Sequence record: OR670491
DNA from: Escherichia phage vB_EcoM_JNE01
Length of the DNA stretch: 64,000 bases
Reading direction: 5' to 3' (one strand)
Part shown: positions 1 to 64,000 of the stretch, piece after piece
How positions within the stretch are numbered: the stretch's first letter is position 1
Layout of the letters: every line of letters begins with the position of its first letter
Made by a program: the position numbers and the translations under genes
Notes under the pieces: model-generated
What the model was told of the DNA's origin: nothing
What the model saw: only the letters and a program-made list of their open reading frames with translations
Database searches by the model: none

Positions 1-62
1 TAATTAAAAAGGATACACTACTCTTAAGGGACATTGATTCAAAAAACCGCATTCGTGCTAAT

Positions 63-365
63 ATGTTTATTGCCCAGAATACTGAAGAAGAATTATCAGT
101 AAGTGATAACACCGAAAAGACAGAGACAGGTGCATATACTATTGACACCTTCAGTGAAGAATGGTATTTTCAAAACAGCCTTCTTCATCATTTACGCCCG
201 TATCAGGATACAAAATCGTTATGGGATATCTATCAAGTACTGAAATGTTGGGACGGGGGTTCTATTGATATGTTATCAGAGATGACTTCAAACTATTCCA
301 ACAGCACTATTGACACAGATGTAGTACTGAAAAAACTATGGAGCATGGTTGCTACTATAGATTAA
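63..365 (+). CDS. hypothetical protein (100 aa)
   Basis: Complete ORF in co-directional gene train; terminator hairpin directly downstream. Confidence 0.5.
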   Translation: MFIAQNTEEELSVSDNTEKTETGAYTIDTFSEEWYFQNSLLHHLRPYQDTKSLWDIYQVLKCWDGGSIDMLSEMTSNYSNSTIDTDVVLKKLWSMVATID

Positions 366-375
366 AAAAAAACGA

Positions 376-402
376 GCCGGAGTGTTGACTTCGGCTTTTT
401 TG
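376..402 (+). terminator. rho-independent terminator
   Basis: Stem GCCGGAGT/ACTTCGGC with GTTG loop followed by T-run. Confidence 0.55.
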
Positions 403-433
403 TTTGGTACTATATCTAAAAATAGGAGGATTT

Positions 434-988
434 ATGAGTTCAAGTTGTGACACCTTGTTTGAGCTATGCACCGATTCGCAGTTTGAAGGATGGGTGGATA
501 AAGTTAATGAATTAAGCGAACGTTATGCACGTTTCGTACAACTCGGTGAGTCTCTAAGTAACTTGCCGTTTACTGAGACTGGGGAAAGAGGAAGTTTAAG
601 TTATAAATGTGATGCATTGCGTTTAATTTTATCATATGATGGTTACCCATTTCTAAGATTATATCCACGTTCAAGAAATTCCAATAACTTGAATAATATA
701 ATTACACCACTATTTTTAACTTATAATACTCACAGTACTACACGAATTAAAATCAATAATGATATGCTACCGGACGATATATTAACAGTGTATGACCTCA
801 TGTACAGTCCTGATGAGCATTTTCAGTGCAGTACTCTATATAGTGTTCCTACCTATGAGAACGCTATTAAAACATTGGAGTTGATGCACAGTATTCAAGT
901 CCAAAGTGAACTATCATTAACGATGGAGTATTGTTTCTTCAATCATGATATTCTTAATAATCTAGATACAATTTTATACGGGTACTAA
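434..988 (+). CDS. hypothetical protein (~184 aa)
   Basis: ORF; ATG at 434 preceded by AGGAGG; alternative upstream start 404. Confidence 0.5.
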   Translation: MSSSCDTLFELCTDSQFEGWVDKVNELSERYARFVQLGESLSNLPFTETGERGSLSYKCDALRLILSYDGYPFLRLYPRSRNSNNLNNIITPLFLTYNTHSTTRIKINNDMLPDDILTVYDLMYSPDEHFQCSTLYSVPTYENAIKTLELMHSIQVQSELSLTMEYCFFNHDILNNLDTILYGY

Positions 989-989
989 T

Positions 990-1604
990 ATGCGTAAAGA
1001 ATATGTTCAATCTTTTGCTATGTTGCAGCATTTAGAAGAAATACTACCACAGTGTATCAATTTTCAAAAAAGTATATACAAGAAGTACAGTATTTGTTCT
1101 CATATGACACTCCAACATAAGAAGTCAAATTTCTATACAGTGTATGATGATTATAATATCTTCTTAAAAAAGAACGGGTGTGACCTTCTTCATATTGAAA
1201 AGTGCAGTCCTAACAAAAATGACTACAGTGATGAATATGTGTTTATGCCTGAATATGATGAAGTGTATATTAATCCATGTTCGGATTTCACATTTGTTTT
1301 GCACAGCGATGACGATGACTCTGTTTACGATGTTTATGGCGTGTATAATGCAAAGTCTAAGATCATGTCATATGATGGCATTGACTTTAAAATTAAATCT
1401 AAAGATGATTGCGAAGCAGCACTTGCACAAATATTGACATTAGCTAATGTAACTATCAGTACAGACGAAGTGTGGAGTATGATTTCAGTACTTACTTCTT
1501 TGTACAGAAATAAAGATATACGTAATTTTAATATATCTTTTACTGAAACGTTTGATATTAAAAATAAATTGGTAACTGGAAATGAACTATTCGAATCTAA
1601 TTGA
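990..1604 (+). CDS. hypothetical protein (204 aa)
   Basis: Long ORF, + strand, tightly packed. Confidence 0.5.
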   Translation: MRKEYVQSFAMLQHLEEILPQCINFQKSIYKKYSICSHMTLQHKKSNFYTVYDDYNIFLKKNGCDLLHIEKCSPNKNDYSDEYVFMPEYDEVYINPCSDFTFVLHSDDDDSVYDVYGVYNAKSKIMSYDGIDFKIKSKDDCEAALAQILTLANVTISTDEVWSMISVLTSLYRNKDIRNFNISFTETFDIKNKLVTGNELFESN

Positions 1605-2178
1605 AAATGCAAGAAACCTGAAAGGAATCAAAAACCTTTGGAGTACCTATGAATTTAATTTTCCCAAAAGTTCAGGTCTAGAAAGTTTAAATGTAGATAT
1701 CAAATTCCGTTATAATAATGGCATGACTGGAAAGATTAGGCTACATAAACTGGGTGTTACGTTCTATGATGACTGCGACCACAGTGTAGGTTTGGTAGAG
1801 TTCATTGACAACATGCAACAGGGTGAAAATTATATATGCAGTAGGATTGGTTCTGATGATTCTGAATTTATCATCGGTAATGGTTTACAATTCCATCTCA
1901 CTGAAGACTGGGATGAAGATTATTATGTGTATGATTATGAAAGTAAAAACATTTTTGATGAGAGTGATTCTCTTGTCACAGACCTCAACGAGCGTATCTT
2001 CCAGAAGAGTACTATCCAAGATAATGTGAGAACTCCAGAAGAAATTGTTGACATGTGCAATGCGTATGATACACTTATGGATATTATGAAAACTGATGGT
2101 ATCCAGTACATTTATCTTTGCGATGATGTATACGTGAACCAAATTCTGAAACGACTTGAGACATTTACTAAGAGGTAG
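1582..2178 (+). CDS. hypothetical protein (198 aa)
   Basis: Long ORF overlapping upstream gene end by a few codons. Confidence 0.5.
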   Translation: MNYSNLIENARNLKGIKNLWSTYEFNFPKSSGLESLNVDIKFRYNNGMTGKIRLHKLGVTFYDDCDHSVGLVEFIDNMQQGENYICSRIGSDDSEFIIGNGLQFHLTEDWDEDYYVYDYESKNIFDESDSLVTDLNERIFQKSTIQDNVRTPEEIVDMCNAYDTLMDIMKTDGIQYIYLCDDVYVNQILKRLETFTKR

Positions 2179-62291: not shown

Positions 62292-62593
62292 AATATATTC
62301 TGATTTTATCATGTGCACTATTATTTGCTGGATGTGCTCAAAAAGTACAATTACCTGCTGACCGAGTAGTAAAGCAAGAGATTCTACTTGAGCGTTGTTC
62401 GTTTGATACCCCACTCCCTGAACAAATTGTTGTTGACAAACACGGCAATTCAGGATACTCTGGTAAAGAAGTTTTGGATGTACTACGTAAATGGGATTCA
62501 ATCTACAATGATTGTGCTCTAAAGCACGATGCATTAATTGACTTGATTCGTAAACTACAAGGTGAAAACATCACGGTCATTATTAAAGAGTAA
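62288..62593 (+). CDS. putative o-spanin (outer-membrane lipoprotein)
   Basis: Signal + lipobox MKYILILSCALLFAGC; ~100 aa; overlaps end of i-spanin candidate. Confidence 0.5.
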   Translation: MKYILILSCALLFAGCAQKVQLPADRVVKQEILLERCSFDTPLPEQIVVDKHGNSGYSGKEVLDVLRKWDSIYNDCALKHDALIDLIRKLQGENITVIIKE

Positions 62594-62603
62594 GGACATT
62601 TGA

Positions 62604-63200
62604 ATGAAGAAATATCAGGTTTACTATAAAACTAATTTAGATTTAATTCATAAACTATCTACTACTGGAGAAGGTACTAAGCGTTATACTTTCAATAAGG
62701 TAACATTCAGATACTTCCCACAAAAAGTACTGACATTTGTTAAAAATTGCAAATGCATTGCTTGTGGTATCGAAGGAACCGAAGTTCGTATTGAACGTTC
62801 TCACAGTAACGATCCAATTTATGGTAAACCTCATCTCAATGTCTATGCAGTGTGTGGATTGTATGAAGTACTCATGACCGTAGATCATAACCATCTGGCT
62901 TCTAAAGGCGGGTCTGATTTAGAAAGTAATTTTAATACCATGTGCGTTCACTGTAATCAAATGCGTTCAAATAAAACTGAAACAGTTCAAGAATTTCTTG
63001 AAAATGTTAAAGGTCGAAATCTATTAGATGAACACATGAAACTTTTTTTCGATAAACAGGAAAAGAAAAAGAACCCTTCTAATAGAAAGCCAGAAACAAT
63101 CGCTTATGAAAAATGGTGGAATGAAGAACATTTATGGCATTACCGTGATTATCTTCGTAAATTGAAAAAAGAAGAAAAAGCTTTACTTAAACAAAAGTAG
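62604..63200 (+). CDS. HNH endonuclease
   Basis: CKCIACG ... VDHNHLASKGGSDLESNFNTMCVHCN (HNH/Zn motif). Confidence 0.7.
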   Translation: MKKYQVYYKTNLDLIHKLSTTGEGTKRYTFNKVTFRYFPQKVLTFVKNCKCIACGIEGTEVRIERSHSNDPIYGKPHLNVYAVCGLYEVLMTVDHNHLASKGGSDLESNFNTMCVHCNQMRSNKTETVQEFLENVKGRNLLDEHMKLFFDKQEKKKNPSNRKPETIAYEKWWNEEHLWHYRDYLRKLKKEEKALLKQK

Positions 63201-63211
63201 TATGTATAATG

Positions 63212-63238
63212 GGACTTGAGAAATCAAGTCCTTTTTTT
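63212..63238 (+). terminator. rho-independent terminator
   Basis: GGACTTGA-GAAA-TCAAGTCC then TTTTTTT. Confidence 0.75.
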
Positions 63239-63251
63239 ATAGGTAAAATAT

Positions 63252-63608
63252 ATGAAAACTAAAATCTTTCTACCACAAACCATGATGGAACTGTGTGAAC
63301 ATGATGCAGGAGATGTAGTCACTATTAGTGGTTCCTGGATTGAGAGTACTGAAGACTTTATGCCAGATGAGGTTTATTCTGTTGTTTTAAATGAACAGTA
63401 CAATACAAGCCGTTGGAATGCACAGTACAATCTAGTTTTTCTTGACAAGAACAATGAAAAGTACTATCATTGTACGTATGAACGAGGTCTGACAGAACGT
63501 AACTACACAACTCCTTTCTGTGATGAAATGGATGGTGTAAAGTGCTATGAAGTTTCTGTTCGTCAGGTTCCAGTTGTTACTTACAAAACCGAGTGGGATT
63601 ATCTGTAA
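63252..63608 (+). CDS. hypothetical protein (118 aa)
   Basis: ORF. Confidence 0.5.
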   Translation: MKTKIFLPQTMMELCEHDAGDVVTISGSWIESTEDFMPDEVYSVVLNEQYNTSRWNAQYNLVFLDKNNEKYYHCTYERGLTERNYTTPFCDEMDGVKCYEVSVRQVPVVTYKTEWDYL

Positions 63609-64000
63609 TGCTTAAAGATTTAGATTTTTCAAATTTAGAGATCATCAGTGCAGTGAAGAACATTACTGATATGGATGATGAAAAAGGTGTAATGGTAACT
63701 ATCACTTTCGTAAAGGAAGAGGATAGCTATAAGCATCTTACTGGAATTGAAGAACTAATCCACAAGACCAATCTCGAAAACGATGGTAAGCTTATCAAGC
63801 TTCAGGCATCCTATTCCCAAAAAACGTCATTTTTTGTAGACCTAAATAATGTAGTCAAGGTGGTATACAATCATCCTGACAACAAATACAGAAGCACAAC
63901 ACGAAACGAAGAAGCAGCCATCGACACTAATATCAAAGATGATGTCGAATTTGTTAATACAGTTTTTGAGCGTTGTGCACCTGAATTGAAAAAAGTATAC
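63608..64000 (+). CDS. hypothetical protein, 3'-truncated by window end
   Basis: ATG overlapping upstream TAA; open frame runs to window end. Confidence 0.4.
   Translation, partial: MLKDLDFSNLEIISAVKNITDMDDEKGVMVTITFVKEEDSYKHLTGIEELIHKTNLENDGKLIKLQASYSQKTSFFVDLNNVVKVVYNHPDNKYRSTTRNEEAAIDTNIKDDVEFVNTVFERCAPELKKVY

Follow-up and report, generated by a model that had tools for sequence, protein, structure and literature searches.

The described system closest to the element treated here is HIP1 (highly iterated palindrome 1, GCGATCGC) of cyanobacteria. HIP1 is a short palindrome, hyper-abundant throughout the genome, that occurs in coding DNA irrespective of the reading frame as well as in non-coding DNA and reflects neither peptide nor codon usage; its sites are conserved among related genomes beyond background, implying selection, and after decades of study its function is still not settled (PMC5861425, PMC4390886). 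In this work we analyzed a 64,000-bp stretch of the Escherichia phage vB_EcoM_JNE01 (record OR670491), hereafter the window, in which the palindromic hexamer AGTACT shares every one of these traits with HIP1. The two differ in their carriers, since AGTACT is found in phages of Enterobacterales and HIP1 in cellular genomes, and in their make-up, AGTACT being a hexamer or octamer with an AT-rich core and HIP1 a GC-rich octamer. Furthermore, no cognate methyltransferase was identified for AGTACT, one of its carrier lineages having none detectable, and the motif stands in a genome purged of nearly all other palindromes, with some of its copies in early promoters. A quasi-periodicity of 10-90 kb has been reported for HIP1; AGTACT is Poisson-like at the kb scale in the 64-kb window, which is too short for that scale.

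Chi (GCTGGTGG), the FtsK-orienting polar sequences (KOPS) and DNA uptake sequences are likewise short words kept dense by selection through a DNA-processing machine. These words, however, are asymmetric and orientation-biased, whereas AGTACT is a perfect palindrome with symmetric flanks, and they are enriched in the host, where AGTACT is depleted (0.26x), so that it does not behave as a Chi-like word. A further comparison is offered by TF1 of phage SPO1, an abundant DNA-binding protein whose preferred sites include the early promoters of the host-takeover module in the terminal repeat, and which recognises hydroxymethyluracil DNA with a loose sequence preference. The layout of AGTACT suggests a similarly abundant factor distributed over the genome and the early promoters, although TF1 is not known to have a genome-wide hyper-abundant palindrome and no TF1-like protein was identified here. 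Our search of the literature on AGTACT, CAGTACTG, ScaI in combination with jumbo phages, and over-represented phage palindromes found no earlier description, and the excess is unmentioned in the published accounts of phages CBB, Sharanji and RaK2 and in a jumbo-phage review.

Abundance and conservation of AGTACT

The window has 95.5% identity with Escherichia phage Turkey5 and about 78-84% with 121Q, PBECO4 and their relatives. By sequence its source is a jumbo phage of the 121Q/PBECO4/RaK2 type and not a T-even phage; the label "T4-like" given to it in an earlier note, made from the letters alone, holds only for its core genes. The RaK2/121Q/GAP32/CBB group comprises jumbo myoviruses of roughly 350 kb with T4-like core replication and structural genes. 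The window has a GC content of 35.9%, and 101 of its 104 crude gene calls lie on the plus strand.

Exact counting found 187 copies of AGTACT in the window against 21.5 expected from mononucleotide composition, an 8.7-fold excess that places it first among all 4096 hexamers, followed by CAGTAC and GTACTG; for the octamer CAGTACTG the count is 48, where 0.7 would be expected. There is no doubt about the excess itself. It is stronger than the earlier note had stated, which had also put the expectation, correctly, at about 20 per 64 kb; its density of one site per 150-250 bp was too high, the sites being somewhat sparser (one per 342 bp). Four of its local counts were exact (4 in 1-900, 5 in 26701-27540, 3 in 36889-37500 and 3 in 45465-46140), and a fifth was one short, since 56655-57896 holds seven sites and not six.

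Of these copies, 173 lie in genes and 14 in non-coding DNA, at densities of 3.0/kb and 2.3/kb, respectively. Within genes, AGTACT starts at codon position 0 (Ser-Thr) in 74 cases, at position 1 in 27 and at position 2 (x-Val-Leu) in 72. When the synonymous codons of each gene were shuffled, keeping protein sequence and codon usage, 47.8 +/- 6.1 copies were obtained, so that the 173 observed represent an excess of about 3.6x (z about 20), and shuffling the order of codons gave 26.5 +/- 4.8. Both nulls are conservative, because the codon usage on which they draw has already been inflated by AGTACT. AGT, ACT and GTA are favoured codons in the window. Ser-Thr dipeptides are spelled AGT-ACT in 52% of cases (15% expected) and Val-Leu dipeptides GTA-CTG in 33% (4% expected). 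These two dipeptides are themselves over-used about 1.55x, and Thr-Ser and Leu-Val are not.

The base preferences on the two flanks of the sites mirror each other: C is favoured at -1 and G at +6, and more weakly T at -3/-4 and A at +8/+9. Phases 0 and 2 show the C(-1)/G(+6) preference, as does non-coding DNA. With these flanks the extended form of the site is (C)AGTACT(G), its information being limited to 6-8 bp. Because all phases and non-coding DNA carry the motif, with symmetric flanks, AGTACT is a signal of the DNA itself, 6-8 bp long and dyad-symmetric, rather than a codon-pair effect. The earlier note had reached the same view from the three phases and from three non-coding sites, and the constraint on synonymous positions described below, together with the codon-preserving null that it had proposed as a check, bears it out. 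The three non-coding sites do exist, at starts 8428, 8534 and 31885 rather than 8437, 8535 and 31886, and only the one at 8534 has a CCC...GGG context.

Spacing in the window is Poisson-like (coefficient of variation of the gaps, 0.94; dispersion index, 0.74 per 2 kb) and the sites are nearly uniformly spread. The proposal that they are sparser in the large tail-fibre-like genes did not hold: in 48157-50856 there are 4 sites where 7.8 would be expected (p = 0.11), the neighbouring stretch 51473-54199 contains 14 (7.9 expected), and 58621-59340, described as free of sites, contains one at 58919.

The excess extends over the whole clade. In 50-kb samples, the ratio of observed to expected AGTACT was 9.1 in Turkey5, 8.9 in 121Q, 10.1 in XbC2, 6.9 in the Klebsiella phage RaK2, 6.8 in the Cronobacter phage GAP32 and 6.7 in the Pectobacterium phage CBB. 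It was low in PA5oct, the next relative (0.2x), in T4 (0.4x) and in Escherichia coli K-12, which has three sites in 50 kb (0.26x) and is rich in GCGC; AGTACT is therefore roughly 50 times denser in phage than in host DNA. This comparison with relatives and host had also been suggested in the earlier note.

In the DNA alignable with 121Q (78% identity), 61 of 104 window sites (59%) are intact in that phage, compared with 27.6% of all hexamers. Third codon positions inside the sites are 79% identical against a background of 60%, and non-coding positions inside them 97% identical against a non-coding background of 82%, while first and second codon positions are like background. As judged from these alignments, AGTACT sites are kept by selection. 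Turnover is also present, as 43 of the 104 window sites are lost in 121Q and 29 of 90 sites of 121Q are absent from the window; between the window and Turkey5 only 14 sites are discordant, with gains and losses balanced, a number too small to be informative. Under the codon-aware null all 18 one-mismatch neighbours of AGTACT stand at 0.5-1.56 of expectation, the strongest deficits having z of about -2; AGTACA is enriched, AGTATT stands at 0.74 and AATACT at 0.84.

AGTACT is the only strongly enriched palindrome in a genome otherwise purged of them. About 28 of the 64 hexamer palindromes, including most of the GC-containing ones other than AGTACT, have a count of zero in the window, among them GGATCC, CTGCAG, GAGCTC, GTCGAC, GCATGC, GGTACC and CGTACG. 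GCGC is missing altogether, from the window (65 expected), from the complete 121Q genome of 348.5 kb (291 expected) and from the RaK2 and GAP32 samples; GGCC, CCGG, CGCG, CTAG and GATC are at 0.2-0.45 of expectation, and GTAC is at 2.5x. This avoidance is far more extreme than ordinary restriction avoidance, with which the AGTACT signal has in common that it concerns 6-bp palindromes resembling type II sites in the same genomes. It is, however, of opposite sign: the site of ScaI and Eco255I is AGTACT itself, which is enriched 8.7x in the window and 8-12x overall. PA5oct shows no palindrome avoidance, and its DNA is protected by heavy modification involving five Mom-like enzymes and a deazaguanine system (PMC7824862).

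Other words are shaped in these genomes as well. Under the synonymous shuffle of the window genes, TATTTA (1 against 28.8) and TAAATA (9 against 35.5) are strongly avoided, a deficit consistent with avoidance of T4-type late-promoter sequences on both strands; the Shine-Dalgarno-like TAAGGA (8 against 27.6) and AAAAAA (44 against 105) are avoided too, and in 121Q TATAAATA occurs 8 and 9 times on the two strands against 53 expected per strand. Chi occurs in 121Q 18 times on one strand and 11 times on the other against 1.1 expected on each (10-16x), and once in the window, at 15987. On the forward strand it is missing from the T4 and PA5oct samples, T4 having two reverse-complement copies against 0.14 expected.

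Early promoters and a second AGTACT-rich lineage

In the whole genome of 121Q, AGTACT is again the top hexamer, with 903 copies against 118 expected (7.65x), and CAGTACTG occurs 194 times against 3.4 expected. Its density differs by module (dispersion index, 3.8 per 5 kb): replication genes have about 1.6/kb, late and structural genes about 1.9/kb, accessory regions of the window's kind 2.6-2.8/kb, and a 25-kb early region of tiny open reading frames (ORFs) at 130-155 kb has 4.3/kb in its coding and 11.7/kb in its non-coding DNA. The fraction of Ser-Thr written AGT-ACT (0.47-0.58) and the ratio of observed to synonymously shuffled AGTACT (2.9-3.9) are similar in every module, so the pressure is uniform and its outcome limited by amino-acid constraint. 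121Q also encodes a tRNA-Ser, confirmed by ARAGORN, with the unusual anticodon ACU that reads AGU, which suggests a long-standing co-adaptation to AGTACT.

In the dense region AGTACT lies inside early promoters of the sigma-70 type, where it takes one of two registers: AAAAAGTAC/TTGCAA-N17-TATAAT or TTGACA...AGTACT(G)-TATAAT. In 121Q it is found at offsets 7 and 27 from TATAAT in 18 and 18 promoters, against about 1.15 expected per offset. The same module makes up the 22.5-kb direct terminal repeat of CBB (1-22456), which has 6.4 AGTACT/kb in the same registers, and where pairs of sites peak at 21-22 bp from centre to centre (15 pairs, where about 0.9 per distance would be expected). In this layout the -35 is covered by one site and a second lies against the -10, both on the same face of the helix, which resembles an operator pair. 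This module, where the density of AGTACT is at its maximum, is built in the style of a host-takeover region, of tiny ORFs each having a strong sigma-70 promoter and a terminator, and AGTACT often stands just before the terminator hairpins (AGTACTGAATCACTAGCCCAC...); in an uncultured relative, the same module has AGTACT at 20x.

A pattern scan of viral contigs led us to a second lineage, consisting of 12 related contigs of 18-34 kb and 38-41% GC with 3-5 AGTACT/kb. There, AGTACT is the top hexamer (10-16x), with the same CAGTACTG extension. These are lambda-like temperate siphoviruses, with a gpA-type terminase, a lambda-type portal, a protease-capsid fusion, tail genes and a large serine integrase, integrated as prophages in Leclercia chromosomes; more distant relatives occur in Yersinia, Serratia, Rouxiella and Pantoea. 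In the prophage of Leclercia sp. G3L there are 4-11 AGTACT per 1.5 kb, and none in the IS1 copy and the 54%-GC segment inside it. The resemblance to the jumbo phages reaches beyond the motif: the zero-count hexamer palindromes are common to this lineage and 121Q (Spearman 0.82), the flank preferences of AGTACT correlate (r = 0.80-0.87), and GCGC occurs once in 71 kb, CCGG, GGCC and GATC not being avoided. Conservation of the sites within the lineage is also above background (87% against 71%, and 37% against 17%).

At the sensitivity of BLAST no protein is shared between this lineage and the complete genome of 121Q, and the only one in common with CBB and GAP32 is a promiscuous homing endonuclease. 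This HNH/AP2 enzyme (CBB gp182, GAP32_181/182) was rejected as a shared reader of AGTACT because its family is spread over phages of every kind, with more than 1,600 records, occurs only sporadically in the clade and is missing from 121Q. No methyltransferase is detectable in the essentially complete genome of about 31 kb of the second lineage, and the early-promoter cassette of the jumbo type was not found in these small phages. As to a bacterial host with a genome-wide AGTACT signature, among the matches listed there were only local repeat elements (Bacteroidales, Rhodococcus and others).

Other observations concern the relatives and gene content of the small phages. Their nearest cultured terminase relative, Escherichia phage DCP80, is not AGTACT-rich, and its record (PQ671644.1, 1-50000) combines a gpA-terminase structural module with genes of the T4 type (motA, ndd, a duplicated rIIA) and runs of N, so that it looks like a chimeric or mis-assembled entry. 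An 8.1-kb contig, IMGVR_UViG_3300027782_006434, is a third unrelated viral sequence with AGTACT as its top hexamer (8.2x), here without GCGC avoidance, and may be another independent carrier. Chi is over-represented 5-8x in the Leclercia-type prophages, which also carry SegE-like GIY-YIG and HNH-AP2 homing endonucleases typical of T4-like phages. Upstream of their late genes, ATAAATA is found 11 times on the late-gene coding strand and once on the other, and members with only 70% identity still have "ATAAATACTTT" in common, about 30 nt upstream of their small-terminase gene; these sequences resemble a T4-type late promoter in a lambda-like phage. Adjoining the small-terminase gene there is a conserved protein of about 188 amino acids, with no Pfam or PHROG match and a D...ExK pattern typical of nucleases of the restriction-endonuclease fold; as a candidate nuclease encoded by these phages themselves, it might have to do with the loss of GCGC.

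What might read AGTACT

The reading that we favour, with a probability of roughly 0.4, is that (C)AGTACT(G) is a positively selected recognition site in double-stranded DNA for a dyad-symmetric, dimeric protein acting on phage DNA in infected Enterobacterales, which would make it the phage counterpart of HIP1. We infer the protein reader, its dimeric state and its action alike. With roughly 900 copies in each genome, or one in about 340-390 bp, the phage DNA would be about 50x richer in sites than that of the host, so a factor reading AGTACT would coat or mark phage DNA selectively. In the sigma-70 early promoters of the host-takeover module, the copies that overlie the -35 or stand just upstream of the -10 would act as operators, through which the same factor could shut off or otherwise control those promoters. 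None of the mechanisms put forward in the earlier note could be proven. The data agree best with recognition by a dyad-symmetric protein and least with a relic of modification or a mutational origin, because there is no depletion of near-cognates, the sites are conserved, and AGTACT is depleted in host DNA.

Several results weigh against a dedicated reader. Neither Pfam profiling of the 121Q candidates nor BLAST between the lineages identified the protein. If no protein is shared, the choice is between an unlikely convergence of two unrelated factors on one 8-mer, a factor encoded by the host, and a small diverged protein; were the factor host-encoded, the lack of the motif in ordinary coliphages such as T4 (0.4x) would be unaccounted for. 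The 6-8 bp of information are short for a typical helix-turn-helix dimer and more like the site of a restriction or modification enzyme. Promoter-embedded copies make up less than 5% of all AGTACT sites and are not independent, because many of them lie in duplicated or paralogous promoter cassettes; the window has no promoter of the dual-site type. Nor was any regular spacing or phasing of its sites found, and there is no sign in it of ordered arrays.

The enzyme-like length of the site fits a role for methylation, in which AGTACT or its GTAC core would be the target of an orphan methyltransferase of the phage and the methyl mark a signal that tells self from host or parental from replicated DNA, or that acts on methylation-sensitive early promoters. 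We regard this as unlikely, though it survives better than the other alternatives. The candidates are the small Dam-family enzyme of the window, which is syntenic with 121Q gp417, XbC2_56 and CBB_72, and the C5-cytosine methylase gp91 of 121Q. Characterised members of this Dam family methylate GATC. All RaK2-like phages carry both a Dam-family (PF05869) and a C5 methylase, whose specificity is not readable from sequence, and the sites over the -35 and -10 lie where methylation could gate transcription. A methyl-mark role of this kind has been proposed for HIP1 and its cognate methylases. In support of this idea, RaK2 DNA is reported to be cut only by methylation-insensitive enzymes (PMC3622015), and HIP variants of cyanobacteria co-occur with a cognate methylase (PMC4390886). 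However, the second lineage lacks any detectable methyltransferase, as noted above, and PF05869 is common in ordinary phages, with about 1900 phage records, most of them from such phages and among them Stx and T1/Tls Dam, and at most 42% identity outside the clade. The window's enzyme was accordingly discarded as the AGTACT enzyme, its family being ubiquitous in phages with no link to the motif. Moreover, methylation explains the tolerance of a site and not an 8-12x excess, and AGTATT and AATACT, which deamination would produce, show no more than a marginal deficit (0.74 and 0.84).

Somewhat less likely still is that the sites serve programmed strand breaks, made by a nicking endonuclease of the phage or by its T4-type topoisomerase II cutting A/GTAC/T with a 4-bp stagger, which would seed recombination-dependent replication of the 350-kb genome or load clamps for T4-type late transcription. 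The clade has UvsX, UvsW, gp41/61, topoisomerase II, gp46/47-like and gp55-like genes and encodes many HNH, GIY-YIG and PD-(D/E)xK nucleases; a dyad 6-mer with a 4-bp core would suit a type II topoisomerase or a restriction-fold enzyme, and Chi, at 10-16x in 121Q, would turn breaks into recombination. Against this, Pfam profiling of the annotated nucleases, methylases and DNA-binding candidates of 121Q revealed no restriction-enzyme family of AGTACT or GCGC specificity, and thus no nuclease that matches the site. The temperate second lineage has the motif without a topoisomerase or T4-type replication, T4 manages without such sites (0.4x), and breaks at one per 340 bp would fragment the genome unless tightly controlled.

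The second lineage may have come to the motif by convergence on a host factor, through a small diverged phage protein missed by BLAST, or by mimicry of the jumbo-phage code. A doubtful elaboration of the last route is that being AGTACT-rich and GCGC-free is a genomic "self code" read by a dimeric factor in cells infected by RaK2-type phages, where GCGC-containing DNA may be destroyed, and that the temperate siphovirus copied this code to survive or exploit the infection, as a mimic or hyperparasite. The sharing of the 8-mer, the flank preferences, the near-zero GCGC and the Chi enrichment would fit, as would the T4-type homing endonucleases and the ATAAATA motifs, resembling T4 late promoters, of the small phage.

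A functionless mutational drive, in which biased mismatch repair or gene conversion turns near-cognates into AGTACT in the manner of very-short-patch repair, is improbable. Such a drive would account for a pressure that is uniform over all genome modules, for the higher density where constraint is low, as in the non-coding DNA of the early region, and for the substantial turnover (43 of 104 sites differ in 121Q), and a repair model has been proposed for HIP1 (PMC4390886). Nevertheless, the depletion of one-mismatch precursors expected of it was absent from all 18 neighbours tested, AGTACA being even enriched, which argues against a conversion drive of the very-short-patch type. Synonymous and non-coding positions of the sites are conserved above background in both lineages, the few differences between the window and Turkey5 divide evenly into gains and losses, and no repair gene is common to both lineages. 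A repair system of the host is not the driver, because AGTACT is depleted in E. coli (0.26x) and the prophage lineage replicates with its host.

More improbable again is a passive origin, in which codon usage, the tRNAs of the phage and the removal of other palindromes would yield AGTACT as a functionless by-product. Shaping at the oligonucleotide level is indeed heavy (GCGC 0 against 65, about 28 of 64 palindromes at zero), AGT, ACT and GTA are favoured, and tRNA-Ser(ACU) is encoded; yet the excess survives nulls that preserve protein and codon usage (z about 20), the motif occurs in non-coding DNA and is 97% conserved there, the dipeptide frequencies are themselves distorted, and purging words should not pile frequency onto a single hexamer.

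Phages often inhibit FtsZ, which would lend sense to sites that titrate or activate the host nucleoid-occlusion factor SlmA and so block division. SlmA is present in the host order and its published site (consensus GTGAGTACTCAC; 12-bp palindrome GTRAGYRCTYAC) has AGTACT as its core hexamer and requires G, T, purine, A and G at positions 1-5 (PMC3020112), but none of the 187 + 903 + 78 = 1,168 phage sites matches GTRAGYRCTYAC, good half-sites in 121Q number 20 against 55 expected, and position 3 prefers C at the phage sites with G the least used, so that SlmA binding is excluded at the sequence level and this explanation is hardly credible.

Other features and significance

Coordinates are collected in the table. 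The roughly 600-bp stretch without ORFs, which is GC-richer than its flanks and holds two AGTACT, comes after a strong terminator-like hairpin; a search of the whole window with Rfam, this stretch included, gave no match. Elsewhere the window encodes a 426-amino-acid protein with three CapR homology domains (PF21817), whose paralogue in 121Q, gp221, is annotated as "endonuclease".

Table. Location of AGTACT sites and associated features; positions refer to the window unless another sequence is named.
Feature	Position	Strand	Remarks
AGTACT population	1..64000		187 sites, 48 as CAGTACTG; genes in three phases and intergenic
Non-coding AGTACT	8428..8433		context CAAGTACTGT
Non-coding AGTACT	8534..8539		inside 12-bp palindrome CCCAGTACTGGG (8531-8542); roughly 600-bp ORF-free stretch
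Non-coding AGTACT	31885..31890		intergenic
Three-site AGTACT cluster (29131, 29150, 29167)	29131..29172		small gene, 4 sites vs 0.8 expected
Terminator-like hairpin	8101-8128		strong
ORF-free stretch	8130-8740		two AGTACT
Small Dam-family (PF05869) DNA N6-adenine methyltransferase	9317..9844	+	Pfam E = 4.7e-34; only DNA-modifying enzyme found in window
CapR-domain protein	38375-39655		426 amino acids
tRNA-Ser(ACU)	121Q 75464-75555		
ATAAATA-type motif, small prophages	contigs L024 4888-4898; L071 3753; L017 (reverse complement) 12002; L026 8130		
Protein of about 188 amino acids, small prophages	contigs L017 2756-3316; L024 4286-4852, minus strand		adjoins small-terminase gene

In practical terms, ScaI/RsaI fingerprints identify these phages, the site provides a handle for pull-down, and recoding can gauge its fitness value. 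A strong and easily recoded signal in virulent coliphages also makes a tractable model that may help with the problem posed by HIP1, which has been open for 30 years.

In summary, and to judge by the searchable literature, AGTACT would be the first case described from phage genomes of a palindrome that is both hyper-abundant and selected. The occurrence of the same code in an unrelated temperate phage would mean either that a common host factor has selected for it convergently or that one phage mimics another. Furthermore, the motif implies a sequence-specific reader with about 900 sites per genome, which would be a new player in the biology of jumbo phages, with possible roles in discriminating self from non-self DNA, in the control of early promoters, in the initiation of replication or in anti-defence.

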